A stretch of 32,000 bases of DNA from Microcystis aeruginosa NIES-843 (lineage in GTDB: Bacteria; Cyanobacteriota; Cyanobacteriia; Cyanobacteriales; Microcystaceae), in contig NC_010296.1 of the NCBI RefSeq assembly GCF_000010625.1, forward strand, positions 4,410,001-4,442,000. Direction: 5' to 3'. Positions within the stretch are counted from its first letter, which is position 1; every line of letters starts with the position of its first letter. The notes under the pieces are model-generated. The model ran no database searches and was not told where the DNA came from. It saw nothing but the letters and a program-made list of their open reading frames with translations. Positions 4,104 to 29,196 of the stretch are shown here, piece after piece. The position numbers and the translations under genes are program-made.

Positions 4104-6356
4104 ATGTCTAAGCAGTCGCCGAAAACCCAAATTAGTCAACTTGTCACCGTTGCCGTGCAGAAATTGCAAGGAAAGGTGAATTTTCAGGCGGTAAATCTCA
4201 AAAAAGGGGCGAGAGTTCCCGAATTACGCCTTAAAAACGAGAATGGCAGCGGGGAAAGCAAATATCCCCTTATCGGCGATCGCTATTTGTTGGGTCGTAG
4301 TTCCAGTTCCTGTGATATTACTATCCGTAATACCGTGGTCAGTCAGATTCATTGTTCCCTGCAGCGTGACCCGAAAAATCCCCATAATTTCCTGCTCACA
4401 GATGAAAACTCCACCAACGGGGTTTATATGGGTAAACGTCGTCTCAAAAGCGTTTCCCTGCGTCATGGTGATACCTTTACCCTGGCCCCCCCAGACTTAG
4501 CCAATTGTGTCACCATCTCCTACTACTGTCCCCCTCCCCTGTGGGCGCGACTTTTGCGCTATGGTTTCTATGGTGCGGGGGGTATTTTCGGTTTATTAGT
4601 TTTAGCGGTTATCTGGGAAAGTCGCAAAGTTAATGTTTATCCACTCCCTTCCGGGGTGAGCGGTCCGGTGGTGGTTTACCCTAGGGATGCTCAAACTCCC
4701 CTCAATCCCATTCGACAGGAAACTCACCGAGAATTAGATAATCTGGGCGATTTTTCTCCCTATTTGCCCCAGGCGGTTGTCGCTTCCGAAGATAGTCGTT
4801 TTTACTGGCATTTTGGGGTTGATCCTTTGGGGATTGTCCGGGCAATTATGATTAATTGGCAAGGTCGGGGCATTCGTCAAGGGGCCAGCACCCTGACTCA
4901 ACAGTTAGCGCGTAGTTTATTCCCCGAAGTCGGTCGCCAAAATACTGCCGATCGCAAACTCCGGGAGGCTGTGGTCGCTTTACAATTAGAAGCGGTGTAT
5001 AGTAAGGATGAAATTCTCAAAACCTATCTCAATCGAGTTTATCTCGGTCTGGCCGGTTACGGTTTTGAAGATGCGGCCCGCTTTTATTTCGATAAATCCG
5101 CTAGAGATTTAGATATCTCCGAGGCTGCTACTCTTGTGGCCATGTTACCCGCCCCGAATTTATTTAATCCCATTCAAGATTACGACACTTCCGTACAACT
5201 ACGCAATCGTGTCATCGATCGCATGGCCCAATTAGGCATGATTTCCCCGGAAGCGGCGGCCAGCGCCCGCAGATCTCGCATTGAAATCAGTCCCCAAGCC
5301 AAAAAATCCCTATCTAGTACGATTGCACCATATTTTTATAGTTACGTTTTCGAGGAATTACAGGACCTTTTAGGGGAAGAAGTGGCTAAAGAGGGCAATT
5401 TTATCGTTGAAACCAGTTTAGACCGCCGAATGCAAGCGATCGCAGAAAAAAGCTTAAAAAATAATGTCTTAAACCAAGGCCCCCGCTATCGTTACTCCCA
5501 AGGGGCTTTAGTTACCCTAAACAGTCAAACCGGGGAAATTCTCGCTTTAGTCGGGGGAGTTGATTATCAAAAAAGCCAATTTAACCGCGCTATCCAAGCT
5601 AAACGTCAACCCGGTTCCACTTTTAAGGTATTTGCTTATGCTGCCGCCCTAGAACAGGGAATATCGCCCTATAAAACCTATACCTGCGCTGGACTCTCTT
5701 GGCAAGGACAGGCCTATTCTCCCTGTGAACGCAGTAGCGGGGCCATCAATATGTTTCAAGGTTTAGCGCAATCGGAAAATAGCGTCGCCCTTCGCATTGC
5801 TCGCGAGGCAGAATTAAGTAATGTGGTCAATGTGGCGGAACGTTTGGGGGTAAAATCACCTTTAAATGCTGTACCGGGGCTAATTTTAGGGCAAAGCGAG
5901 GTAAATGTCTTAGAAATGACCGGTGCTTATGGGGTTTTTGACCATCGTGGGCGCTGGAATCGTCCCCACGCCATTAAACGCATTCTCGACGCTTCCGACT
6001 GTGAAAATGTGGAGGATTTGAGTACCTGTCGGGTTATTTATGACTATGGCGACGATAGCGAGAGAAATAAGCAGGTAATCTCCCCTAAAACCGCCGAAAC
6101 GATGAATAGCCTATTGCGGGGGGTGATAACTAATGGTACAGGAGGCGCTGCCAGTATTGGCATGGGAGAAGCGGGTAAAACGGGAACTACGGATAATTAT
6201 GTGGATCTCTGGTTTATCGGCTATCTTCCCCGGCGCGACTGGGTGACAGGCATTTGGTTAGGTAATGATAATAATTCTCCCACTGCGGGCAGTAGTCAAC
6301 AGGCAGCCCGGTTATGGGGCGATTATCACCGTCAGTTAATCACTACACAAAACTAA
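4104..6356 (+). CDS. Class A penicillin-binding protein (transglycosylase/transpeptidase) with an N-terminal cytoplasmic FHA domain
   Basis: 750 aa. FHA signature: YLLGRSSSSCDITI...SQIHCSL...TDENSTNGVYMG...GDTFTL. TM helix GFYGAGGIFGLLVLAVIW. GT51 motifs EDSRFYWHFGVD, GASTLTQQLAR and RKLRE. Transpeptidase motifs STFK, SEN and KTGT. Confidence 0.9.
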   Translation: MSKQSPKTQISQLVTVAVQKLQGKVNFQAVNLKKGARVPELRLKNENGSGESKYPLIGDRYLLGRSSSSCDITIRNTVVSQIHCSLQRDPKNPHNFLLTDENSTNGVYMGKRRLKSVSLRHGDTFTLAPPDLANCVTISYYCPPPLWARLLRYGFYGAGGIFGLLVLAVIWESRKVNVYPLPSGVSGPVVVYPRDAQTPLNPIRQETHRELDNLGDFSPYLPQAVVASEDSRFYWHFGVDPLGIVRAIMINWQGRGIRQGASTLTQQLARSLFPEVGRQNTADRKLREAVVALQLEAVYSKDEILKTYLNRVYLGLAGYGFEDAARFYFDKSARDLDISEAATLVAMLPAPNLFNPIQDYDTSVQLRNRVIDRMAQLGMISPEAAASARRSRIEISPQAKKSLSSTIAPYFYSYVFEELQDLLGEEVAKEGNFIVETSLDRRMQAIAEKSLKNNVLNQGPRYRYSQGALVTLNSQTGEILALVGGVDYQKSQFNRAIQAKRQPGSTFKVFAYAAALEQGISPYKTYTCAGLSWQGQAYSPCERSSGAINMFQGLAQSENSVALRIAREAELSNVVNVAERLGVKSPLNAVPGLILGQSEVNVLEMTGAYGVFDHRGRWNRPHAIKRILDASDCENVEDLSTCRVIYDYGDDSERNKQVISPKTAETMNSLLRGVITNGTGGAASIGMGEAGKTGTTDNYVDLWFIGYLPRRDWVTGIWLGNDNNSPTAGSSQQAARLWGDYHRQLITTQN

Positions 6357-6566: not shown

Positions 6567-7553
6567 TTAGGCAATCACCTGAATATTGCTTGCACCGAGG
6601 GTCGCTGCGCCAGAGCCACCAATGTTTGCGATTGTAACCAGACTAACACCAAGACCAGCGTCTGTGTCAAACTGTAAAACACCACCACTGTAGACAAATC
6701 TGACAGCACCACCCGCAGTTGCCCCGAATAGGCTAGGAGCCAAAGTACCACCAACGGTAGTCAGTCCACCACCGAAACCACCGTTAGAAACTACGATAGC
6801 ATCCGTATTGCCGCTAGCGATGTTAAAATCCGCGATCAAGTCACCGCCTTCGTTGGGATTGTTGTAAACAAAACGGTCATTACCATTACCACCAGTGAGG
6901 GTGTCGCTTCCTAAGCCACCGATTAGGGTATCCGCTCCCCCGATACCGGATATTATATCGTTACCATCGCCACCGATTAGGGAATCGAAACCATTACCAC
7001 CATTTAGGGTATCGTTACCATTACCACCAATTAGGGTATCGGCACCCTCGCCACCACTTAGGACATCGTTACCATCGCCACCAATTAGGGTATCGGTACT
7101 GTTACCGCCCGTTAGAGTATCGTTGAACGCACTACCTGTGATGAAATAGGAATCGGTGAGTAAGAGTGGTGCGATCGAACTTACTACTTGCGGACCCGAC
7201 GCTTTCGTGTTAACAATACCGCCGGTTAGTTGATAAGTGCCGGCAGACCCGCCTCTAACAAAGGTAAGGCTATTTGCTGGCAGGGAAAGGGTCTTAGAAA
7301 AGCCTCCACCGGCCCTGGAAAGGGTTGCGCTATCAGCAACGCCTGCGTTGGCTATTCTCCAAACTGTATCGCCGCCCGTACTTAAAAGTCCCAGGGAAGT
7401 GAGATTATCGGCGGTAAGGCCTGTTGTCGATATAGAAATGGGGACAGTAGGATGGGCGTTCAGGAAAGCGGCAACTGACGTAGTCACAGTAGGATTGAAA
7501 CTAGCACCAGTGGGACCGGGGAGGCTAGCGAATGATATGGTTACAGTGGGCAT
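6567..7553 (-). CDS. RTX-type (hemolysin-type) calcium-binding repeat protein
   Basis: 328 aa, rich in Gly/Thr/Ser/Ala. Nine consecutive nonapeptides of the GGxGxDxLx type (GGDGNDVLS GGEGADTLI GGNGNDTLN GGNGFDSLI ...). No N-terminal signal peptide, as expected for a type I secretion substrate. Confidence 0.85.
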   Translation of the reverse strand: MPTVTISFASLPGPTGASFNPTVTTSVAAFLNAHPTVPISISTTGLTADNLTSLGLLSTGGDTVWRIANAGVADSATLSRAGGGFSKTLSLPANSLTFVRGGSAGTYQLTGGIVNTKASGPQVVSSIAPLLLTDSYFITGSAFNDTLTGGNSTDTLIGGDGNDVLSGGEGADTLIGGNGNDTLNGGNGFDSLIGGDGNDIISGIGGADTLIGGLGSDTLTGGNGNDRFVYNNPNEGGDLIADFNIASGNTDAIVVSNGGFGGGLTTVGGTLAPSLFGATAGGAVRFVYSGGVLQFDTDAGLGVSLVTIANIGGSGAATLGASNIQVIA

Positions 7554-9649: not shown

Positions 9650-9885
9650 TCCTAATTTTTGTCCTAGAAGTTGATATGACGGCTATTTGTGGCAGCTCAG
9701 AGTGAATTTATGAGTCTTGTACTGGTTTGCTAAGGCTGTCTCACTATAACTGATAGTTTCTCATCAGTCTCTCATCTATTGTCAGAGAAAGAGGTGCGCT
9801 TGGCAAGGGAATCGCTCAATTTATTTGCTACTCTTGCAGAAAATCCTCGGTTTTTACCTAATCAGATAGCAGATACCTGTAGCCG

Positions 9886-11043
9886 GTGATAGAGATGAGC
9901 ATTAGGTGCTTTTGTACTACTATTAAGACCATTGAAGGCGATCGAGTTTTCTGGTGCGAAGTGCCACAATTAAGAAAATCGATCGATGCGATCGCTGGAA
10001 GCGTGGCCGATGATGAAGCGGTGTATTTTTATCTGTGGCAATGGTTACAGAATGATCCTAATAACCAATTAGTCAAGTCCCATTGGATGGTTTTCTTACA
10101 ATATCGCTCCTGTATGGTAACTCAAAGGGTCTATAAAAATGTTGGCCATCGGATCGATGCTGATTATGAAACCCTCTTCTACTATTTGCTGAATTTGCTT
10201 GCCACGGCAATCACCAACAATCCTCGCAATTTTTACGGTAACTTTCAGGATAACAAGACCAAACCGGGATTTTTTCGCTTAATCTTAGAAAAATGGACAG
10301 ATAAAAAATTAAGAAATACTCTCTATAATTTTCTGCGAGGAGAGTATAAAACGATTGGCAGGACTAATCTCGGTATAGTCAGTCTTTTTAGTGCGAATAA
10401 AATTCAAAAAGTTTTACGAACATCGGGTATCTTTAACGAGAATCATCTGCTAATATTTAACTGTTTTCGAGAGGTTAAAAAAGCTTCTCTTAGATCATTG
10501 GATAAGTGGCAAGAGGAGGATTGGCAACAGGTAATCGATCGCCTACAGCAGTTACAACCGCAAGTTATTCTCACCGTTGAGGAAGTGCAAGCAAAACTCA
10601 ATCAAATAGGGGAGATAATGCGTAATCATATCGATCCTCCTTACTCTAAATTTGAGCCTAATAATTATGACGATAATAGCAATTACTTTTGGGAAAATAT
10701 CCCCAGCAAGAAGCCAAGTAAAGATTTACTACAACAGCAAGAAATCCAGGAAGATATTAATAAGTTATTAATCACTCTTGAGGATGAAGTTAAACAGATT
10801 GTATATTATTACTATCATCAAAAGATGACGCAAGCACAGATCGCTAATCGATTGGGAGTTCATTCATCTACTATTAGTCGAGAAATAACCCAATTATGTA
10901 AAAAAATTTATCAGCTACTCTGTGCAAGGGAAGGCAAAGATTGCCCTATTTTGTTAAATGAGATTCAATTAGAATCTCGGCAAAAACAAGAGATCGATGC
11001 TTATCTAAAATATTTTTGTCAGTCCTACTTAACTCAAATCTAA
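9886..11043 (+). CDS. Divergent sigma-70-family / HetZ-like putative transcription regulator
   Basis: 385 aa. The C-terminal region-4-type HTH is YYYYHQKMTQAQIANRLGVHSSTISREITQLCKKIYQLL. A region-2-like stretch is FFRLILEKWTDKKLRNTLYNFLR. The start may be GTG 9886 or ATG 9895. The CDS itself is solid; the function is inferred. Confidence 0.6.
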   Translation: MIEMSIRCFCTTIKTIEGDRVFWCEVPQLRKSIDAIAGSVADDEAVYFYLWQWLQNDPNNQLVKSHWMVFLQYRSCMVTQRVYKNVGHRIDADYETLFYYLLNLLATAITNNPRNFYGNFQDNKTKPGFFRLILEKWTDKKLRNTLYNFLRGEYKTIGRTNLGIVSLFSANKIQKVLRTSGIFNENHLLIFNCFREVKKASLRSLDKWQEEDWQQVIDRLQQLQPQVILTVEEVQAKLNQIGEIMRNHIDPPYSKFEPNNYDDNSNYFWENIPSKKPSKDLLQQQEIQEDINKLLITLEDEVKQIVYYYYHQKMTQAQIANRLGVHSSTISREITQLCKKIYQLLCAREGKDCPILLNEIQLESRQKQEIDAYLKYFCQSYLTQI

Positions 11044-11059
11044 TCTGTTAGGAGATACC

Positions 11060-12424
11060 ATGAAAGTCAACCTCGATATTTTGCAACAAATTAACCCGAA
11101 ATCCCTTTGGCTAACTTTTTCGGAAACAGAGATTAAACAAGCTCGATCGATTCTCGGTCAATACTCTAATCAAACCGCCAAAAATCAGGCTTTGATTAAT
11201 TACTTGGTGCAAATATGCTTAAGCAATTGGCTGAAAGATAATCTTGATTGTTCCCTTCAAATAATACCTGAAAACCATCAGTATCTTTGGGAGTTTATTA
11301 ACGGGTTTACTTGGCAGATTAAAGACAAAAAAGTTACTACTATTCCCAGTCAAGCGATTGACATTGAGGGATTGACAATAGAGCAAGAATGGGTTGATAT
11401 TCCCGATTTAGCGGCAGATTTTTATCTAGGGGTGCAGGTAGATTTAGCAGAAAAATTTCTCAATATCTGGGGTTTTATATCCAGAAAAGATGTTAAAAAT
11501 CTCGCAGAATACGATTCAATTTACCATCAATATTATTTAGATAGTGAGCAAATGATTGATGATTTAGATATTCTTTGGCAGAGTTGTTTAGAGGGAGAGA
11601 GTGAACAAGAAAAACTGGAATCTTTAGCAAATTTATCGCCAGCAACAGCAGAAAAATTAATTAAAAAGTTAGGTCAAGTTTCACCCTATTCTCCGAGATT
11701 AGATATTAGTTGTCAGCAGTGGTTAGCTTTGTTGAATGATCAGCAATGGCGAGAAAAACTTTATCAGCAGCGTCTAGAAATAATCCCCACTAAACTTAGT
11801 CAATGGTTACAGGGAATTATTACAGAGAAATGGCAGGAAATCCTCAGCACTATCGACAATTATCGTCCAATTAATCCAGGGTTTTTGTTGGCTGCTGAAA
11901 AAATCAGCAGCCGAGAATCTCCGACAGATATTCAGCGAGAAATTAGACAACTGTATGCTAGTCAAAAAGAGGTGGAATTTTCGGAACATTTAACCCCAGA
12001 GGAAGCTTTAGCAAAACTGCAACATCAAACCCAAGATGAAACTATTCGCTGGCAAGCGGCCGAATATCTCTGGAATATTGATCCTCATTATCCCAATGCT
12101 GCTATTCGTAAAATGCTCGATGTGGGTAGTCAATTAATGGGTTATAAAATCGCTTTAATGGTGGGAGTTTTATCGACCAGTGACCAGAGAATTGCTGTTT
12201 TAATTCGTGCCTATGCCATGGACAATTTTGCCAAGCTACCCCCTGGTTTATCTTTGCAAATTAGCGATGAAATAGGCCAATTAATCCCCGGTTTAGAAGC
12301 AAGAGCAAGGGAGAAACCCTTAGATAGCTATCTACAGCTTTATTTTCTAGCTGATGCCGACGATCGCTTTAATGTTAACCTAAGTTTAGGGGACAGTAGC
12401 ATTACCGAACAGTTTAGGATTTAA
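11060..12424 (+). CDS. DUF1822-like (PatU-like) protein
   Basis: 454 aa. RBS AGGAG lies upstream and the gap to the preceding gene is 16 nt. It has one HEAT-like motif (ETIRWQAAEYLWNIDPHYPNAAI). The beta-rich C-terminus (IAVLIRAYA...LPPGLSLQISDE...YLQLYFLADADDRFNVNLSLGDSSITEQFRI) matches my memory of DUF1822 proteins. No HMM was run. Confidence 0.55.
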   Translation: MKVNLDILQQINPKSLWLTFSETEIKQARSILGQYSNQTAKNQALINYLVQICLSNWLKDNLDCSLQIIPENHQYLWEFINGFTWQIKDKKVTTIPSQAIDIEGLTIEQEWVDIPDLAADFYLGVQVDLAEKFLNIWGFISRKDVKNLAEYDSIYHQYYLDSEQMIDDLDILWQSCLEGESEQEKLESLANLSPATAEKLIKKLGQVSPYSPRLDISCQQWLALLNDQQWREKLYQQRLEIIPTKLSQWLQGIITEKWQEILSTIDNYRPINPGFLLAAEKISSRESPTDIQREIRQLYASQKEVEFSEHLTPEEALAKLQHQTQDETIRWQAAEYLWNIDPHYPNAAIRKMLDVGSQLMGYKIALMVGVLSTSDQRIAVLIRAYAMDNFAKLPPGLSLQISDEIGQLIPGLEARAREKPLDSYLQLYFLADADDRFNVNLSLGDSSITEQFRI

Positions 12425-12456: not shown

Positions 12457-15069
12457 ATGAGCAGAGTTGTGATTCTGAAAATTGGTGATGGCAGTTTTGA
12501 GACGGGATTTTCCGTCACTCTAGAAATTCGTGACAATCATCTCTTGATAGCACCTTTTGCGGAGGGTAGATTAGTCCCTAACCTTGACATTGCTGACGCT
12601 TTGCAAAATTATCGTCGAGCTTATTATCATTGGGTAAAAAGTCAACCCAGTTTAGGAATTACCGTTCCTCATAGCATGATCACCCATGCAGCGGTAGGTG
12701 ATCCTAGAGACAACCTCAAAAAAGCCACTAAAACTTTAAAAGATAGCTTAAATGAATGGCTAAATTCCAGTTCTCTGAGTTCGATACAAAATCATATCTT
12801 GTTCCATATAGGTACTGAGTCAGAAGTAAGATTTTTTATCCAAACTACCCACTTTGATCTACAACAAATTCCCTGGGAGTCTTGGAATTTTTTACACAAA
12901 TGGTTTCCCGATGTGGAAATTGCTCTTACTATCCAGATAGATCCCCCGAGAGAACGTACTTTTACTTATCCGATTAATGTTTTAGTAATTTTGGGCAATA
13001 TTGACATCGAAAACAAGCATACTTCCCTGTGTTTATCCAGTTTGCAAACGGTACTAGGAAACCAAGATAAGGTTTCTATGCAAATATTAAGTCCTGGTTC
13101 AGACCCTCCTCTTTCAACGATAAATATTCACAATGAGTTGATCAAAAATCCATGGGATATTGTAGTTTATTTAGGTCATAGTCAAACCAGTAGTGACGGT
13201 CACGATGGAGTTTTTATCATTGATAATGATACGGCTTTATCTCCAGAACATAACTTAAGAAATTCCCTAGAAAAAGCTGTTAAAAAAGGCTTAAAACTTG
13301 TTATCTGTAATTCCTGCGATGGTTTAGGTATTGGCCGTCAGTTGGCTAATATCGGAGTACCCCATATTATTGTTATGAAAGAACCGATCGCCGTGCGGGT
13401 TGCTTTGAGATTTCTAGAAGTTTTTCTTCCCAATTTTCTTGGACATAAATCCCTACAAGAATCCTTAACAATCGCTCGACAAGACTTAAAATTACACGCA
13501 TTTGCGGTGGATGCTGCTAGTTCTTCTTTGCTGCCTCGTTTGATAGAAAATCCTGAAGAACCACCGTTAATTTTACCTTTACCCCCTGAAAATACGGAGG
13601 AAAATCACCAAAATAATCATGAGCAAAGTTGGCCTTTACGTCTATCTAGTCGCTGGAAACAAGCTCTGTTATTTATTTTAAGTCTTCTGGTAACTTTATC
13701 AATTTTATATTGGGGAGGAGTATTTTCCGATGATGCTAGTAAATACCCAGAAATTAGCTTAGGTGAAGAAATATTATTAAAGACAAACCGACAAGATAAC
13801 ATTATTGAACGGGGAAGACAAGCTTTTAAAAACAAAGAATATAAACAAGCAATTCAGCTTTTTAAAAAATCCCTCGATCGCTTGCCCAATAATCCAGAGA
13901 TTCGCATCTATTATAATAACGCTCGTGCGGCCTATCAAGACAGAAATCCCTTAAAAATTGCCACCAGTGTTCCGCTTGGTAATAATCCAGAAACTGCTCA
14001 GGAAATTTTACGAGGTATTGCTTTATTCCAAGAGGAGTTAAACGATGAACAGGCCAAAAACCCCGATTTTCACTTTCTACAGGTAGTGGTCGCTAATGAT
14101 AATAATAGCCCCGTAGATGCCAAAGATCGAGCCGAAAAATTTGTTAAAGATCCGTCAATCTTAGCAGTGGTTGGTCATAATGCTTCTGCTGCTAGTGAAG
14201 CGGCCAAAGATATCTATGTACAAGGGAAAATTGTTGCCCTATCTCCCACCAGCTTTTCCCCGAAAATCTCCGGTAATGGCTATGTGTATAAGATGGTTCC
14301 CGATCTGGAAACTTTTGCCACAACCTTAAGTGAATACATCCGCAAACAAACTGACAAGCTAATTATCCAAAACCCCACTAATTTAATTTGTTACGATAAT
14401 CGCTCTGGGGATAATTATAACTTCGCTCAAAAATATAGAAACATTCTTCTCGGTCAGCAGTTTCAAAAAGTCATTAAAGATGCAGATTTTGACTGCAATA
14501 TCGAACCAAAAAATAATTTAGATCAAGAGAAAATTTATCAAAAAATCGCTCAATACCAAGTAAATATTCTCATGATTGCTCCCTATATTAACGATCTGAA
14601 AAGAGCCGTCAGTATCTTTAAGCAACGTCCCGCACAACAGTTAAACTTAGTGATTTTAGGTTCCCCCACCTTTCAAAGTTATCTCACCCTTGCAGAAGGT
14701 AAACAAGGAGTAGAAAATTTAGTTATCACCGTGCCTTGGTATGATCTCAAACAAGATAATTATATCCACAGTTTTTGGCAAAATAAGATCAATGTTTGGC
14801 GCACTCCCATGGCCTACGATGCGACCAAAGTTATCCTCACCGCTTTGCGACAGTTATACCAACAAGGACAAAAATTCGATCGAGAATTATTAAATCAAGT
14901 TTTAAGAAACGATTTTTCTATCGAAGGAATGACTGGCACTGTTAGATTCGATGAGAATGGTGTCCGCAACATGAACAATAATCCTGATGATCGCCGCTAC
15001 TTGATTCTACAGGTCAAAAAGGGTCAATTTGTCCCCCTCGCTCCCATTAAATCTGCCGGTCCAGTCTAA
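12457..15069 (+). CDS. Transmembrane receptor: cytoplasmic CHAT (caspase-like) protease domain, one TM helix, periplasmic TPR-like motif and type I (LivK/ANF-receptor-type) solute-binding domain
   Basis: 870 aa. CHAT features: IPWESW, His241 in VVYLGHS (nt 13177-13179), Cys287 in LVICNSCDG (nt 13315-13317). TM helix ALLFILSLLVTLSILYWGGVF (aa 402-423) has RLSSRWKQ before it and SDDAS after it. TPR-like segment RGRQAFKNKEYKQAIQLFKKSLDRLPNNPEIRIYYNNA. Binding-protein motifs AQEILRGIALFQEE, VVGHNASAASEAA and LSPTSFS. Confidence 0.75.
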   Translation: MSRVVILKIGDGSFETGFSVTLEIRDNHLLIAPFAEGRLVPNLDIADALQNYRRAYYHWVKSQPSLGITVPHSMITHAAVGDPRDNLKKATKTLKDSLNEWLNSSSLSSIQNHILFHIGTESEVRFFIQTTHFDLQQIPWESWNFLHKWFPDVEIALTIQIDPPRERTFTYPINVLVILGNIDIENKHTSLCLSSLQTVLGNQDKVSMQILSPGSDPPLSTINIHNELIKNPWDIVVYLGHSQTSSDGHDGVFIIDNDTALSPEHNLRNSLEKAVKKGLKLVICNSCDGLGIGRQLANIGVPHIIVMKEPIAVRVALRFLEVFLPNFLGHKSLQESLTIARQDLKLHAFAVDAASSSLLPRLIENPEEPPLILPLPPENTEENHQNNHEQSWPLRLSSRWKQALLFILSLLVTLSILYWGGVFSDDASKYPEISLGEEILLKTNRQDNIIERGRQAFKNKEYKQAIQLFKKSLDRLPNNPEIRIYYNNARAAYQDRNPLKIATSVPLGNNPETAQEILRGIALFQEELNDEQAKNPDFHFLQVVVANDNNSPVDAKDRAEKFVKDPSILAVVGHNASAASEAAKDIYVQGKIVALSPTSFSPKISGNGYVYKMVPDLETFATTLSEYIRKQTDKLIIQNPTNLICYDNRSGDNYNFAQKYRNILLGQQFQKVIKDADFDCNIEPKNNLDQEKIYQKIAQYQVNILMIAPYINDLKRAVSIFKQRPAQQLNLVILGSPTFQSYLTLAEGKQGVENLVITVPWYDLKQDNYIHSFWQNKINVWRTPMAYDATKVILTALRQLYQQGQKFDRELLNQVLRNDFSIEGMTGTVRFDENGVRNMNNNPDDRRYLILQVKKGQFVPLAPIKSAGPV

Positions 15070-15176
15070 ACCTTCCTATCCTTGTCAAGACTTTTTACAA
15101 AACTTAACCTTACCCACTGCATCAAAGTTAGCCATCACTCCTAATTAACAGGTAACACCTCTAGGAGACAAACGGC

Positions 15177-15907: not shown

Positions 15908-17257
15908 ATGACAAAGACTGGCAAAAAAGCGGGTTTACCGCCAATTTCCTATGTTTTACTGGGGTTGATCGGTTGGTTTCTTTTTCCCCAAATCTCGGCA
16001 ATATTTGCCCCAAAAGCCGATAATAATCCCCGCATCAGTTACGGCAATCATCTCCTGATCAAAACTAATTCTAACACCACCAAAGAATCAGCGATCGCTG
16101 CCATTGCTCAAGGTGATCACCAAGAAGCAGAGCAACTCCTGCAAAAATCCCTCGCTCAACGTCCCAACGATCCCGAAAGCGTAATTTATCTCAGCAACCT
16201 GCAAACTGGCTCAAATCCCTTTAAAATCGCCGTTGTTGTGCCAGCAACAACTAATCCCAACGTCGCTCAGGAAATATTGCGAGGAGTCGCCAGCGCACAA
16301 ACCCAGATCAATCAACAGGGAGGGATCAACGGCAGAAAACTGATGGTTATCGTGGTTAATGACGATAATCAGCCGCAGATATCGAAAGAGGTAGCTGGTG
16401 AATTAGTCAAAAATCCTGATATTATCGCTGTTATCGGTCATAATGCCTCCGATGCCAGTTTAGCCGCCGCTCCCATCTACGAAAAAGGCGGTTTGGTGAT
16501 GATTTCTCCCACCTCCCTGGCTAATAATCTCTCCGGTGCGGGAAATTATATCTTTCGTCTCGTGGCTTCTAACGGCAAAATTACGGAAACCTTAGCAAAT
16601 TACATAGTAAATACTGCTAAAGTCCAGAAAATTGCTTTTTGCTACGATTCTCAAGCTCCTGATAATATTTCCTTTAAAGATGAGTTGATGGCTAATGTGG
16701 CGAAAAAAGGCGGTCAAATTGTGCCGATAGTCTGTGATCTGAGTGTCCCCAATTTTAAGGCCGATCAAGCTCTTAATCAGGCGATTTCTGGGGGTGCTAA
16801 CGGTCTATTTGTCGTCGCTCATGTTGATCGTCTCGATCCCGTTTTTGAGGTTATTCGCTCCAATCGTCAGCGTTTGCCTCTGTTTAGTAGTCCCACCCTC
16901 TACAATATTCGCACCCTCGAAGATGGCGGCAAAAACGCCCAAGGTTTAACCCTTGCCGCACCCTGGCACCCCTCGGTTAACCAGACTTTTGCCAATCTTA
17001 TGCAGGAACAGTGGCGCGGTCCAGTTAGTTGGCGCACAGCCACCAGTTTTGACGCTACACGGGTGATTATTGCCGGTTTAAGGGAAAATACCCATCGTCA
17101 AGGCCTACAATCCCTGCTGCGCTCTGGCAATTTTCATCAAACAGGGGCCACCGGAAAAATTAGCTTTGATCCCAATACTGGCGATCGCATTGGTCAGCCG
17201 GTGTTAATTCAAGTGCGATCGACTCCCTCCGGTGAGCAGTTTGTCCCTTTGCCTTGA
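15908..17257 (+). CDS. Membrane-anchored TPR plus type I solute-binding protein, paralogous to the C-terminal half of the 12457 gene
   Basis: 449 aa with RBS AAGGAG, 11 nt after the PspA-like gene. N-terminal anchor KKAGLPPISYVLLGLIGWFLFPQISAIF. TPR-like HQEAEQLLQKSLAQRPNDPESVIYLSN. Motifs FKIAVVVPATTNPNVAQEILRGVASAQ, IAVIGHNASDASLAAAPIY and MISPTSLA are collinear with aa 430-870 of the CHAT receptor. Confidence 0.8.
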   Translation: MTKTGKKAGLPPISYVLLGLIGWFLFPQISAIFAPKADNNPRISYGNHLLIKTNSNTTKESAIAAIAQGDHQEAEQLLQKSLAQRPNDPESVIYLSNLQTGSNPFKIAVVVPATTNPNVAQEILRGVASAQTQINQQGGINGRKLMVIVVNDDNQPQISKEVAGELVKNPDIIAVIGHNASDASLAAAPIYEKGGLVMISPTSLANNLSGAGNYIFRLVASNGKITETLANYIVNTAKVQKIAFCYDSQAPDNISFKDELMANVAKKGGQIVPIVCDLSVPNFKADQALNQAISGGANGLFVVAHVDRLDPVFEVIRSNRQRLPLFSSPTLYNIRTLEDGGKNAQGLTLAAPWHPSVNQTFANLMQEQWRGPVSWRTATSFDATRVIIAGLRENTHRQGLQSLLRSGNFHQTGATGKISFDPNTGDRIGQPVLIQVRSTPSGEQFVPLP

Positions 17258-17409: not shown

Positions 17410-18120
17410 ATGGATATCGTTATTATCGAAGATGAAATTGAAATCGCCCATTTGATTCAGCAAACTTTAGAGCGGGAGTCCTTTACTTGTCATCTGGCTT
17501 ATAATGGTAGGGTAGGACTAGAACTATTTTATCAAAAGCAACCAGAATTAGTGATTTTAGATTTAATGTTACCCGAATTAGACGGACTGGAATTGTGTGC
17601 TAGAATTCGCCAAAAACCCGGGACAAAAGACCCCTATATCTTAATGTTAACCGCTAGGGGAGAAGAAATCGATCGCATTATCGGTCTATCTACGGGAGCC
17701 GACGATTATATGGTCAAACCCTTTAGTCCCCGGGAATTAACCGCTCGCGTAAGGGCATTATTAAGACGTAGTTTAAGACACGATAGTCAACCCCAGCAAC
17801 TCCATCGCAGCCGTCATTTTCTGATCGACTTAGATCAACATTCTGCTCTTCGTAAATTGGAGGGAATGCCGGAGGAAACCCTCGATTTAACCACCTTAGA
17901 ATTTAATTTATTAGCTACCTTTGTCAGTTATCCCAATCGCGTCTGGAGTCGCACCCAATTAATCGATAATCTCTGGGGAAATGATTTTTTTGGCGATGAA
18001 AGGGTAGTAGATACCCATATCCGACGCTTACGCAAAAAAGTAGAACCCGATCCTGCTAATCCGATCTTTATCAAAACTGTAGTCGGTGTCGGTTATAAAT
18101 TTGAGGATGACATTATTTAG
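17410..18120 (+). CDS. OmpR-family response regulator (receiver plus winged helix)
   Basis: 236 aa. Receiver motifs IVIIEDE, LVILDLMLPELDG and YMVKPF. C-terminal winged helix LTTLEFNLLATF...IRRLRKKVE...TVVGVGYKF. The stop TAG (18118-18120) lies inside a MITE terminal repeat. No kinase gene is adjacent. Confidence 0.9.
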   Translation: MDIVIIEDEIEIAHLIQQTLERESFTCHLAYNGRVGLELFYQKQPELVILDLMLPELDGLELCARIRQKPGTKDPYILMLTARGEEIDRIIGLSTGADDYMVKPFSPRELTARVRALLRRSLRHDSQPQQLHRSRHFLIDLDQHSALRKLEGMPEETLDLTTLEFNLLATFVSYPNRVWSRTQLIDNLWGNDFFGDERVVDTHIRRLRKKVEPDPANPIFIKTVVGVGYKFEDDII

Positions 18121-26653: not shown

Positions 26654-27577
26654 ATGCCTATTCCAGATTTTCAATCGATTATGTTGCCGCTATTAAAAAT
26701 ACTTGCAGATGGCAAAGTTTATAAATATCGAGAAATTTTTGAAGCCTTGGTCAGAGAGTTTCAAGTCACGGAAGCGGAAAGAAAAGAAATGCTTCCCAGT
26801 GGACAACAAGAAATTTTTGCTAATCGAGTCGGTTGGGCAAAAACCTATTTAAAGAAAGCGGGATTAATTGACTCACCCCAAAGGGCAACTTTTGTAATTT
26901 CTGAGAAAGGAAAAGAAATCTTATCTCAAAATCTAGACCATATCGATACAAAATTTCTCAGGCAATTTCCTGAGTTTCAAGAATTTACTAGAGTCAATAA
27001 GCAAAATGAAACTATTACTCTTGAAAGCAATTTATTAGCTTCTGATCAAGAACAAAACCCAGAGGAATTACTAGAAAACTCCTATCAAGAAATTCGTCAA
27101 GCATTAGCGACAGACTTACTTTCTATTCTGCGAAAATTATCCCCAGATGCTTTTGAAAAATTAGTAGTAGAATTACTGGTAAAAATGGGTTATGGTGGCT
27201 CGATTAGAGATGCAGGTAAAGCAGTGGGTAAGAGCGGTGATCAAGGGATTGATGGAATAATAAAAGAAGATAGACTCGGTTTAGATATAATCTATATTCA
27301 AGCCAAAAGATGGGCTGATAATAATGCCGTTGGTCGTCCAGAAATCCAGAAATTTGTCGGGGCATTAGCGGGACAAGGAGCCAAAAAAGGTATTTTTATC
27401 ACTACTTCCTATTTTACCCAAGAGGCTTTAGAATATGCCCCCAGAAATGAGATAAAAATAGTGCTGATTGATGGGGAAGAATTAGGTCAATTGATGATCG
27501 ATTATAACTTAGGTGTATCGACCAAAGAAATCTATGAAATCAAGAGAATCGATCATGATTATTTTGGGGATGAATGA
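26654..27577 (+). CDS. mrr: Mrr-family type IV restriction endonuclease
   Basis: 307 aa. N-terminal Mrr_N winged helix (IPDFQSIMLPLLKILADGK...). C-terminal catalytic core FEKLVVELLVKMGYG...GDQGIDGII...IIYIQAKRW, the PD-(D/E)xK pattern of Mrr_cat. Confidence 0.88.
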   Translation: MPIPDFQSIMLPLLKILADGKVYKYREIFEALVREFQVTEAERKEMLPSGQQEIFANRVGWAKTYLKKAGLIDSPQRATFVISEKGKEILSQNLDHIDTKFLRQFPEFQEFTRVNKQNETITLESNLLASDQEQNPEELLENSYQEIRQALATDLLSILRKLSPDAFEKLVVELLVKMGYGGSIRDAGKAVGKSGDQGIDGIIKEDRLGLDIIYIQAKRWADNNAVGRPEIQKFVGALAGQGAKKGIFITTSYFTQEALEYAPRNEIKIVLIDGEELGQLMIDYNLGVSTKEIYEIKRIDHDYFGDE

Positions 27578-27652: not shown

Positions 27653-28234
27653 ATGGACGGGATGACCTTTTTTCAGAAAAGTGCGGGACAGTGGAAATCT
27701 CAGCGCACCACCCATCATTTACCCTTTCGACGAGCAGAAACTGGCGATTCCGAGATTTATGTGGAAGCTTTAAGCGCCGATAACCCGAAAATTATCGCTA
27801 TCTGTGAAATGCACGAAGTCGATCCCGCTAAGACTGTGGGGGGTGCCTTTGTCAGTTGGGATGGTTCAATGCAGTGGGACAAAGAAAACGAAAATCATCA
27901 AGGAACCACCGTTTTTGCGCTAATTCCCGATGAAGATAATCCCCAAGCTGGTGTTCTCCTGCGGGAGCGAGGTTATGCGGAAATCATTCCCGTGGCGGGC
28001 CGTTATCACATTGATGAACAGGAAGGTTTAGTCTTAATTACAGAATACGAAACTATGACCTCGATCGAGCGTTTTTGGTTTGCCGATACCGATTTACGTC
28101 TCCGCACTAGCACAGTTCAACGTTTTGGCGGTTTTAATACGGCCACTTTTTGTGCTGAATCCCGCAATCAGTCATCGGAGTCAGTCTCTAGTGATTCCCC
28201 CGAACCATCATCCTATTCGATTAGTGGCTGGTAA
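27653..28234 (+). CDS. cpcS: Phycobiliprotein chromophore lyase, CpcS/CpeS family
   Basis: 193 aa. The N-terminus FFQKSAGQWKSQRTTHHL is the family signature, followed by a lipocalin-like length. Subtype (S versus U) is not resolved. Confidence 0.8.
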   Translation: MDGMTFFQKSAGQWKSQRTTHHLPFRRAETGDSEIYVEALSADNPKIIAICEMHEVDPAKTVGGAFVSWDGSMQWDKENENHQGTTVFALIPDEDNPQAGVLLRERGYAEIIPVAGRYHIDEQEGLVLITEYETMTSIERFWFADTDLRLRTSTVQRFGGFNTATFCAESRNQSSESVSSDSPEPSSYSISGW

Positions 28235-28443: not shown

Positions 28444-29196
28444 TTGGCCATTCCTCTTTTAAATTACGCCCCCAAGTCCCAAAACGTGCGGGTAGCTGGT
28501 TATGATGTCGGTGGAGACGAAAAACCGAAAGTTTACACGACGGAAAATGTCCTCTCCCCTACCGACCTGGACGATTTAATCGAAGCCGCTTACCGTCAGA
28601 TTTTCTTCCATGCCTTCAAATGGGATCGGGAACCCTTCCTCGAATCCCAATTACGCAATGGACAATTATCGGTGCGGGATTTCATTCGTGGTTTGCTGTT
28701 ATCGAAAACCTTCTATAACAGCTTCTACGAGAAAAACAGCAACTATCGCTTTGTCGAACAGGTAGTACAAAGAGTCCTCGGTCGCGATGTCTATAGCGAA
28801 AGAGAAAAAATTGCTTGGTCGATTGTCGTTGCCACCAAAGGCATTCAAGGTTTTGTTGATCAACTTCTCAACAGTGACGAGTATCTGCAAAGCTTTGGTT
28901 ATGATACCGTTCCCTACCAACGTCGTCGCACCCTGGCCAGCCGCGAAATCGGTGAACGTCCATTCAACATCACCTCGCCTCGCTACGATGGCTACTATCG
29001 CGGTATTTTGGGCTTCCCCCAAATCGTTTGGCAGAATGCTGTCCGTCGCTATGTTCCCCAAGAGCAAAAACCCAAAGCCGGCGATCCTTCCAGCTTCTTG
29101 GCTATGGCCCGGGGTCTCGGTAGCGCCAAAGGCAATCCTGTACCAAGAGTCTCCGCTATGAATATTAACATCGAGGCTTCTGTACCCCGTCGTTAA
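28444..29196 (+). CDS. cpcG: Phycobilisome rod-core linker polypeptide CpcG
   Basis: 250 aa. (M)[19 protein letters not shown]... and the PBS-linker domain [11 protein letters not shown]...[15 protein letters not shown]...[20 protein letters not shown]. The start is TTG 28444, with GGAGG (28433-28437) 6 nt upstream. Confidence 0.92.

Follow-up and report, generated by a model that had tools for sequence, protein, structure and literature searches.

The 32,000-nucleotide (nt) stretch of the genome of Microcystis aeruginosa NIES-843 analyzed here (contig NC_010296.1, positions 4,410,001 to 4,442,000; below, the window) contains a gene for a protein of 870 amino acids (aa), in which a caspase-like protease of the CHAT/separase type is followed by a single transmembrane (TM) helix and a type I periplasmic binding-protein (PBP) domain. 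The protein belongs to the EACC2-caspase/sigma/DUF1822 family (Kaur et al. 2021) and carries a PBP as its tail. Its probable role, to which a probability of roughly 0.55 is assigned, is that of a PBP-gated membrane receptor-protease controlling a sigma-like factor and an operon for a PspA-like protein and a further PBP. The gene and the parts of its product are as follows.

12457..15069, + strand: CHAT-PBP gene of the putative receptor-protease, ATG start, open reading frame (ORF) of 870 aa

12457..13560, + strand: constant module, probably cytoplasmic, aa 1-368, comprising the N-terminal alpha+beta domain (EACC2) and the predicted CHAT/separase-type caspase-fold protease

13561..13659, + strand: juxtamembrane linker, aa 369-401, with aa 382-400 predicted to be disordered

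13660..13725, + strand: single TM helix, aa 402-423, from hydropathy

13807..13938, + strand: TPR-like hairpin capping the PBP, aa 451-494, from sub-threshold TPR matches

14074..15018, + strand: type I binding-protein domain (Peripla_BP_6 / ANF_receptor), probably periplasmic, aa 540-854, above the Pfam cut-off

An earlier reading of the nucleotide letters without database searches (the sequence-only reading) had proposed this ORF, its domain order and several landmark residues. The ORF and the landmarks were all found where that reading had placed them, namely, IPWESW at aa 138-143, His241 within GHS (nt 13177-13179) and Cys287 within NSCDG (nt 13315-13317). The order of CHAT protease, one TM helix, TPR-like element and type I PBP was confirmed by Pfam and hydropathy. 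CHAT (PF12770) is recognized by Pfam at aa 215-344 with 28.2 bits (cut-off 24), Peripla_BP_6 at aa 540-854 with 58.5 bits (cut-off 31.7), and ANF_receptor in the same protein with 39.3 bits (cut-off 25.4). All Pfam TPR models at aa 451-494 are sub-threshold (TPR_19, 21.3 against 25), and this region is one TPR-like hairpin rather than a TPR domain; the residues of its motif are invariant across the aligned homologs, and the same element is present in a paralog encoded downstream at 15908-17257.

Conservation of the protease module was analyzed in two alignments: A1 with 11 sequences, i.e., the target and ten full-length homologs of 38-89% identity, and A3 with 52 homologs of the N-terminal module of 25-40% identity. 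The His241/Cys287 pair, noted earlier among the CHAT hallmarks, is invariant in both, as are G240, N285, S286, D288 and G289, belonging to the G-H-S and N-S-C-D-G contexts. In the AlphaFold2 model of aa 1-400, obtained from the 52-homolog alignment with a predicted local distance difference test score (pLDDT) of 85.9 and a predicted template-modeling score of 0.88, an alpha+beta N-terminal part precedes the caspase core, and only aa 382-400 are disordered. His241 and Cys287 are each located in the model directly after a beta-strand (235-239 and 281-284), in a caspase-fold-like manner. The best Foldseek match of the module in PDB is Csx29 of the type III-E Craspase (8eey, 3e-10); further matches are represented by separases of human, yeast and worm (4e-10 to 5e-7), the SAVED-CHAT filament 8tl0 (7e-8) and the anti-sigma protein DdvA (3e-6). 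The sequence profile of the module also matches the SAVED-CHAT chain of 8tl0 with E 0.0019. The modeled structure, with its matches to Csx29 and separases, supports the caspase/hemoglobinase fold earlier assumed for the N-terminal half, and the protease, predicted to lie on the cytoplasmic side of the TM helix, is probably active.

A catalytically dead CHAT module, serving as a scaffold and signaling through protein-protein contacts only, has been suggested for DdvA, whose TPR-CHAT periplasmic domain has an incomplete active site; for the target this is highly improbable, as His241, Cys287, G-H-S and N-S-C-D-G are invariant over 52 diverse homologs. The DdvA-DdvS system of Myxococcus xanthus (PDB 8rot) is otherwise similar, comprising a single-pass membrane protein with a CHAT fold and the control of a sigma factor of the extracytoplasmic function (ECF) type, but DdvA has the opposite topology, with the anti-sigma domain inside and TPR-CHAT in the periplasm. 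In the target, CHAT is predicted to be inside, the dyad is intact, and no anti-sigma domain is fused. The length of the segment at 13060-13125 of the window (aa ~203-223), within the module, varies among the Microcystis homologs. A near-duplicate insert of ~17 aa (ILSPGLK..LSPKNI) is present in the protease module of homolog P0092, between two predicted strands.

The TM helix at aa 402-423, with a Kyte-Doolittle value of 2.18, is the sole hydropathy peak above 1.6 in the protein; its N side carries RLSSRWKQ (+3) and its C side is acidic. N-in topology, with the protease inside and the PBP outside, had already been predicted from the flanking charges. It is probable by the positive-inside rule, by the paralog at 15908-17257 with the same TPR-PBP part behind an N-terminal signal anchor, and by relatives in which this position is taken by CHASE2, a known extracytoplasmic domain. 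The linker in front of the helix (aa 369-401) is poorly conserved in the alignment of homologs, with pLDDT below 50 at aa 382-400, and may be considered a candidate autocleavage region.

Sequence matches of the PBP domain in PDB are represented by 4mlc, 3td9 and LivJ 1z15, the alignment to solved PBPs being of limited coverage, and LivJ-like G-H-x-x-S and S-P-T-S loops are present in the domain. The NCBIfam LivJ-type model NF011933 yields 27.8 bits against a cut-off of 477, and ‘amino-acid-binding’ would be a mere family label for this PBP. The names given by the source databases, ‘branched-chain amino acid ABC transporter substrate-binding protein’ and ‘adenylate cyclase’, can hardly be correct, even with this weak LivJ-type match in favor of the former. 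They are contradicted by the architecture, in which the PBP sits behind a TM helix and is fused to a 400-aa protease module, while no cyclase domain was detected by Pfam. Genes for an ABC permease or ATPase are absent from the 32-kb window, and a role in ABC transport was rejected accordingly. The database names were transferred from the PBP domain alone; with the present analysis, a misannotation widespread among these proteins is corrected.

Type I PBP sensors of the Venus-flytrap type are fused to signaling outputs in ANF receptors, class C G-protein-coupled receptors, and bacterial kinases and cyclases, and usually function as dimers. The target is similar to these receptors in the connection of an extracytoplasmic type I PBP via one TM helix to an intracellular enzyme, but its predicted output is a caspase-fold protease rather than a cyclase, kinase or G-protein coupler.

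The proteins closest to the target (84-96% identity, full-length) were found in many Microcystis genomes. The search with aa 1-400 among 1.84 billion cluster representatives (protein clusters at 50% identity) revealed 2064 matches at E ≤ 1e-3, including 468 below 1e-30. The matches span the whole module of ~370 aa. The tails were analyzed in the 149 top representatives, whose lengths nevertheless lie between 160 and 1763 aa; the module occupies the N-terminus in 132 of them, is followed by one or more TM segments in 98, and has a PBP-like tail in 23. Other tails are represented by CHASE2, PBP_like_2 (phosphate-type, type II PBP), COP23 with trypsin, ricin lectin, Ser/Thr kinase, NACHT, TIR, GTPase, WD40 and TPR. 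Over 100 protein clusters from Microcystis and 78 loci of many genera contain the 870-aa CHAT-PBP fusion, and therefore a frameshift through which two separate genes were read as one, a concern voiced in the sequence-only reading, was ruled out.

A constant N-terminal module consisting of a new alpha+beta domain, EACC2, followed by a caspase domain was described by Kaur, Iyer, Burroughs and Aravind (eLife 2021;10:e70394, PMC8195603, section 9). According to that section, its C-terminal tails are hypervariable, some being extracellular behind TM helices, with CHASE2 as an example and with ‘several small-molecule-binding domains’, the neighboring genes encode an ECF sigma factor and DUF1822, and stimulus-induced peptidase activation with sigma output is proposed. 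Comparison with this description showed the same constant N-terminal alpha+beta and caspase module, hypervariable tails and sigma/DUF1822 neighbors in the proteins studied here. The target locus shares with the EACC2-caspase systems the module, the variable tail, the ECF-like sigma and DUF1822 neighbors, the mainly cyanobacterial distribution and the proposed logic from stimulus through caspase to sigma factor; the published description differs in being purely computational. The statement of the sequence-only reading that a receptor-caspase architecture of this kind had not been seen is overstated, since the module with extracellular tails is described in e70394, and HetF is a studied protease with CHAT, TM and periplasmic TPR.

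In the supplementary tables of Kaur et al., no entry with the architecture EACC2+caspase+PBP is present, and a type I PBP tail is not named in the passages of the text concerned with these systems. The main-text passages on EACC2, DUF1822 and sigma do not include the PspA-like/TM-TPR-PBP operon, the co-varying motif or PBP-PBP fusions, the paper not having been searched for PspA. The additions made here are a TM-plus-sensor layout that appears to be widespread in the family, the PBP-PBP fusions, and a co-varying promoter-like motif from which the output of the pathway may be predicted.

HetF of Anabaena sp. PCC 7120 (Alr3546), a membrane CHAT protease with one TM helix and periplasmic TPR, cleaves PatU3 after Arg117 (PMC8406250, PMC9457339) and is the nearest studied protein in architecture. 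An N-terminal cytoplasmic CHAT domain, one TM helix and a periplasmic TPR region are common to both, and the catalytic Cys is similarly placed (Cys295 in HetF and Cys287 in the target), while the target adds a PBP. HetF differs in the absence of a PBP, is not reported beside sigma/DUF1822 genes, and acts in cell division and heterocyst development, whereas Microcystis is heterocyst-free; the name HetF was not found among the retrieved relatives in cluster look-ups. The shared layout would also suit a HetF-like housekeeping protease, constitutively active and tethered, which the periplasmic domain only positions, e.g., at the septum or at cell-wall peptides. HetF is located at the divisome and degrades one cytoplasmic regulator, and a hetF deletion mutant regains both cell division and heterocyst differentiation when given no more than the soluble CHAT fragment. 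Such a role of the target is nevertheless unlikely, as signal input accords better with the tight linkage to sigma-like and DUF1822 genes throughout the family and with hypervariable tails of sensor type (CHASE2, two PBP classes, lectin). HetF, the sole studied membrane-anchored CHAT protease in the literature searched, would gain a wider context once one member of the family is understood.

The genes adjoining the CHAT-PBP gene in the window are as follows.

9886..11043, + strand: sigma-like gene, 385 aa from GTG 9886, with Sigma70_r4

11060..12424, + strand: DUF1822 gene, 454 aa, Pfam DUF1822 222 bits

15177..15896, + strand: PspA/IM30-family gene, 239 aa, PspA_IM30 45.7 bits against a cut-off of 33.9

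15908..17257, + strand: gene of the free membrane-anchored TPR-PBP paralog, 449 aa, Peripla_BP_6 115 bits, hydrophobic anchor at aa 16-34

The neighborhood scan included one genome per species, with at least 579 relatives and 78 loci kept, and covered representatives of the genera Microcystis, Microseira, Phormidium, Anabaena, Nostoc, Fischerella, Scytonema, Calothrix, Rivularia, Pseudanabaena and others. The sigma-like, DUF1822 and CHAT-PBP genes, located on the same strand with short gaps, form one operon, in which the CHAT-PBP gene is the third. Wherever upstream DNA is available among the 78 loci, the CHAT-PBP gene is almost always immediately preceded by a DUF1822 gene in the same orientation. 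These neighborhood data agree with the earlier proposal that the two upstream gene products are likely partners of the protease. At L011:5491-15650 (Microseira wollei NIES-4236), and also at loci L010, L012, L014, L017, L048 and L070, one sigma-like/DUF1822 pair is followed by two to four CHAT-TM-PBP paralogs in tandem.

The sigma-like protein contains Sigma70_r4 at aa 296-341 (Pfam, 28.9 bits against a cut-off of 24.1). The sigma70-ECF model TIGR02937 gives 40.1 bits, below its cut-off of 42.9, and covers only the C-terminal part; matches to PDB sequences are at the level of the helix-turn-helix (HTH) only. Sequence comparison suggests ATG 9895 as the true start of the gene. The 385-aa type is represented in Microcystis and in the Oscillatoriales clade, the orthologs of the latter having 24-30% identity and the same position. 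At 45 further loci, DUF1822 is preceded by a protein of ~215 aa, one copy of which matches TIGR02937 at E 6.6e-4.

In the AlphaFold2 model of the DUF1822 protein (pLDDT 82.9), an alpha/beta domain at the N-terminus is followed by a helical region, and a disordered linker at aa 254-285 leads to HEAT-like helices and, at the C-terminus, a beta-sandwich. Only weak beta-sandwich matches were obtained with Foldseek (best 7.7e-4), and a profile search against PDB sequences was empty. Some DUF1822 proteins are labeled TRADD-N+TPR by Kaur et al. in their account of these systems (PMC8195603); the Pfam model TRADD_N has no match in the DUF1822 protein of the window. The linker, encoded at 11819-11914 of the window, carries the motif F-R-x-x-x-V-R-G-[FI]-E-L-[DE]-T in the Oscillatoriales and Nostocales homologs (alignment A6). 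By analogy with HetF, which cuts after Arg, the F-R-x-x-x-V-R-G part is a possible candidate cleavage site for an Arg-specific CHAT protease, kept only as an idea because the motif is not conserved in Microcystis.

Behind the CHAT-PBP gene, Microcystis and roughly twelve further loci, several of Oscillatoriales and Pseudanabaena among them, have a pair of genes for the PspA-like protein and the TM-TPR-PBP paralog. The free paralog, which aligns with aa 412-861 of the target at 32% identity (E 3e-60), is the probable periplasmic partner of the PBP of the receptor. At 14 loci, nearly all from Nostocales, one ORF of ~1230 aa with the order CHAT-TM-PBP-TPR-PBP and a single TM segment was found. 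Such fusions suggest a joint action of two PBP domains in the periplasm; in Microcystis, the free paralog encoded at 15908-17257 would be the second of them. The dimer habit of Venus-flytrap domains fits both the free paralog and the PBP-PBP fusions.

Further downstream, every Microcystis locus and L080 have the gene of an orphan OmpR-type response regulator next after the cluster (window 17410-18120), with no adjoining histidine kinase gene in the window. In L006 (Microcystis sp. LSC13-02, 10541-10790), the PspA-like/TM-TPR-PBP operon is absent and the response-regulator gene is located directly after the CHAT-PBP gene. Another downstream partner set, a FIST-domain gene and a histidine kinase gene directly behind the CHAT-PBP gene, is present in Calothrix parasitica (L069:10805-13000).

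When the regions preceding the sigma-like and PspA-like genes were compared between genera, a promoter-like motif emerged, represented in the window at two positions.

9835..9862, + strand: promoter-like two-part motif TGCAGA-N16-CCTAAT, 33 nt before ATG 9895 of the sigma-like gene

15118..15145, + strand: promoter-like two-part motif TGCATC-N16-CCTAAT, 32 nt before ATG 15177 of the PspA-like gene

The pattern TGCA-N18-CCTAAT has exactly two matches in the 32-kb window (expected 0.05), one in the short intergenic region in front of the sigma-like gene and one in that in front of the PspA-like gene. The site at 9835-9862 is kept at the same place in seven of the eight Microcystis loci, and the site at 15118-15145 is kept in the Microcystis loci and absent from L006, which is without the PspA operon. 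In the relative with 65% identity (L080), TGCATA-N16-CCTAAT is present at the same place before the PspA-like gene. The relative with 54% identity (L079) contains CCGCGTRR-N14-CCCGAAT exactly twice, 33 nt before the sigma-like gene and 31 nt before the PspA-like gene.

In the Oscillatoriales clade, the motif is represented by TGCATA-N15-CCCAAT. With at most one mismatch, 31 matches were found in the 78 loci and the window, compared with 6.2 in shuffles; about 25 of the 31 belong to the Oscillatoriales clade, all on the + strand. Scanning of the window with TGCATA-N15/16-CCCAAT at up to two mismatches yielded seven matches over both strands, including 9835-9862 and 15118-15145. Downstream genes were identified for part of the Oscillatoriales sites; they encode the sigma-like and PspA-like proteins, a Ser/Thr kinase, an S8 subtilase, a DUF4359-kinase pair and an unknown 515-aa protein. 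The presence of the motif before the kinase, subtilase, DUF4359-kinase and 515-aa genes implies that the local regulon is larger in Oscillatoriales than in Microcystis. Oscillatoriales sites downstream of the CHAT-PBP gene are located at L009:10528, L012:10701/14108/16205/17996, L010:6949/8743 and L017:13484/15873. A generic scan for sigma-70 promoters and terminators was uninformative.

The motif thus differs among three lineages, and within each lineage the same variant occupies both sites. Co-variation of the same two positions is to be expected if an alternative sigma factor controls its own gene together with the PspA-like operon. On these grounds, the motifs point to autoregulation of the sigma-like factor, with the PspA-like operon among its targets.

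According to the proposed mechanism, a periplasmic cue, a small molecule or peptide, would bring about a change of state in the PBP, which probably acts as a pair with its free paralog. The altered PBP would switch on the cytoplasmic Cys protease of the separase/Csx29 type (His241, Cys287), which would then cut an inhibitor of the sigma-like factor, the best candidate being DUF1822; alternatively, the protease may cut its own disordered juxtamembrane linker. The freed sigma-like factor would boost its own operon and induce the PspA-like membrane-protection protein and more PBP. The topology, ligand gating, the role of DUF1822 as substrate or anti-sigma factor and the direction of regulation are inferred.

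A comparable coupling is known from CRISPR systems. In type III-E, the CHAT protease Csx29 cleaves Csx30, thereby freeing a sigma factor. For type III-B, a preprint (bioRxiv 10.1101/2023.06.23.546230) reports a proteolytic CHAT/caspase cascade with a link to a sigma factor. Craspase Csx29 and SAVED-CHAT are the best structural matches of the module and are likewise signal-activated CHAT proteases coupled to a sigma factor, but they are soluble and activated by target RNA or cyclic oligoadenylate, whereas the input of the target would come from a periplasmic domain across the membrane. No CRISPR genes were found near the target locus.

Several observations weigh against the proposed receptor-protease pathway. 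A sigma-2 region was not detected in the sigma-like protein by Pfam, NCBIfam or PDB sequences; its 385-aa and ~215-aa types have no BLAST match to each other and are aligned by hhalign with a probability of 6.5%, over the C-terminal HTH only. No anti-sigma domain was found in DUF1822 by Pfam, NCBIfam, PDB sequence or fold. The PspA-like/PBP operon is linked to the receptor in some clades only, and the single-locus chance estimates for the Microcystis and L079 motifs are optimistic, since the patterns were refined after the sites had been seen. The PBP could serve localization or protein contacts instead of the sensing of small molecules. Experimental studies of this protein type were not found in the literature on DUF1822, CHAT+PBP, CHAT+CHASE2 and Microcystis+CHAT.

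Another explanation is a conflict or programmed-cell-death system, in which the receptor would detect an invader- or damage-derived molecule, the protease would kill the cell or make it dormant through broad proteolysis, and the sigma factor would be accessory. The EACC2-caspase proteins are classed with counter-invader, apoptosis-like systems in the account of Kaur et al. (PMC8195603). Such family tails as TIR, NACHT, STAND and trypsin are typical of immunity proteins, and up to four tandem CHAT-PBP paralogs in Microseira (L011) suggest diversifying sensors. On the other hand, searches of the five proteins with PADLOC defense models gave marginal, non-credible matches only. The gene is surrounded by a conserved housekeeping context (gyrB, ilvH-type and mnmA-type genes), with full-length homologs highly similar across Microcystis, and the operon predicted as output carries a gene for a protective PspA-like protein and none for a toxin. 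A death or defense function therefore appears rather unlikely.

A stronger form of the receptor-protease reading is more tentative. A ‘receptor caspase’ may constitute a distinct type of bacterial transmembrane signaling, in which a Venus-flytrap pair, formed by the receptor PBP and a free or fused second PBP, directly gates a separase-like protease, and a single cut in DUF1822 frees a non-canonical sigma factor for a PspA-type envelope-protection regulon. If this is true, the layout parallels the wiring of eukaryotic death receptors to caspases and explains a large cyanobacterial family of more than 2000 protein clusters at 50% identity with interchangeable sensor heads. Microcystis forms toxic blooms, and its sensing of surroundings and neighbors is poorly understood. 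The locus represents a compact testable pathway, comprising a predicted outside sensor, inside protease, private sigma factor and membrane-protection operon, with the promoter motifs as a direct read-out. Solving one member would explain a large uncharacterized signaling family, as the same module occurs with dozens of sensor heads across cyanobacteria.

Other genes of the window include that of a class A penicillin-binding protein (4104-6356) with transglycosylase and transpeptidase domains and an N-terminal FHA domain, and, on the minus strand at 6567-7553, that of a 328-aa protein with RTX calcium-binding nonapeptide repeats. At 26654-27577, a gene of Mrr-type restriction endonuclease (Mrr_N and Mrr_cat) is located amid phycobilisome-related genes, encoding a CpeS-like protein (27653-28234) and a linker polypeptide (28444-29196).

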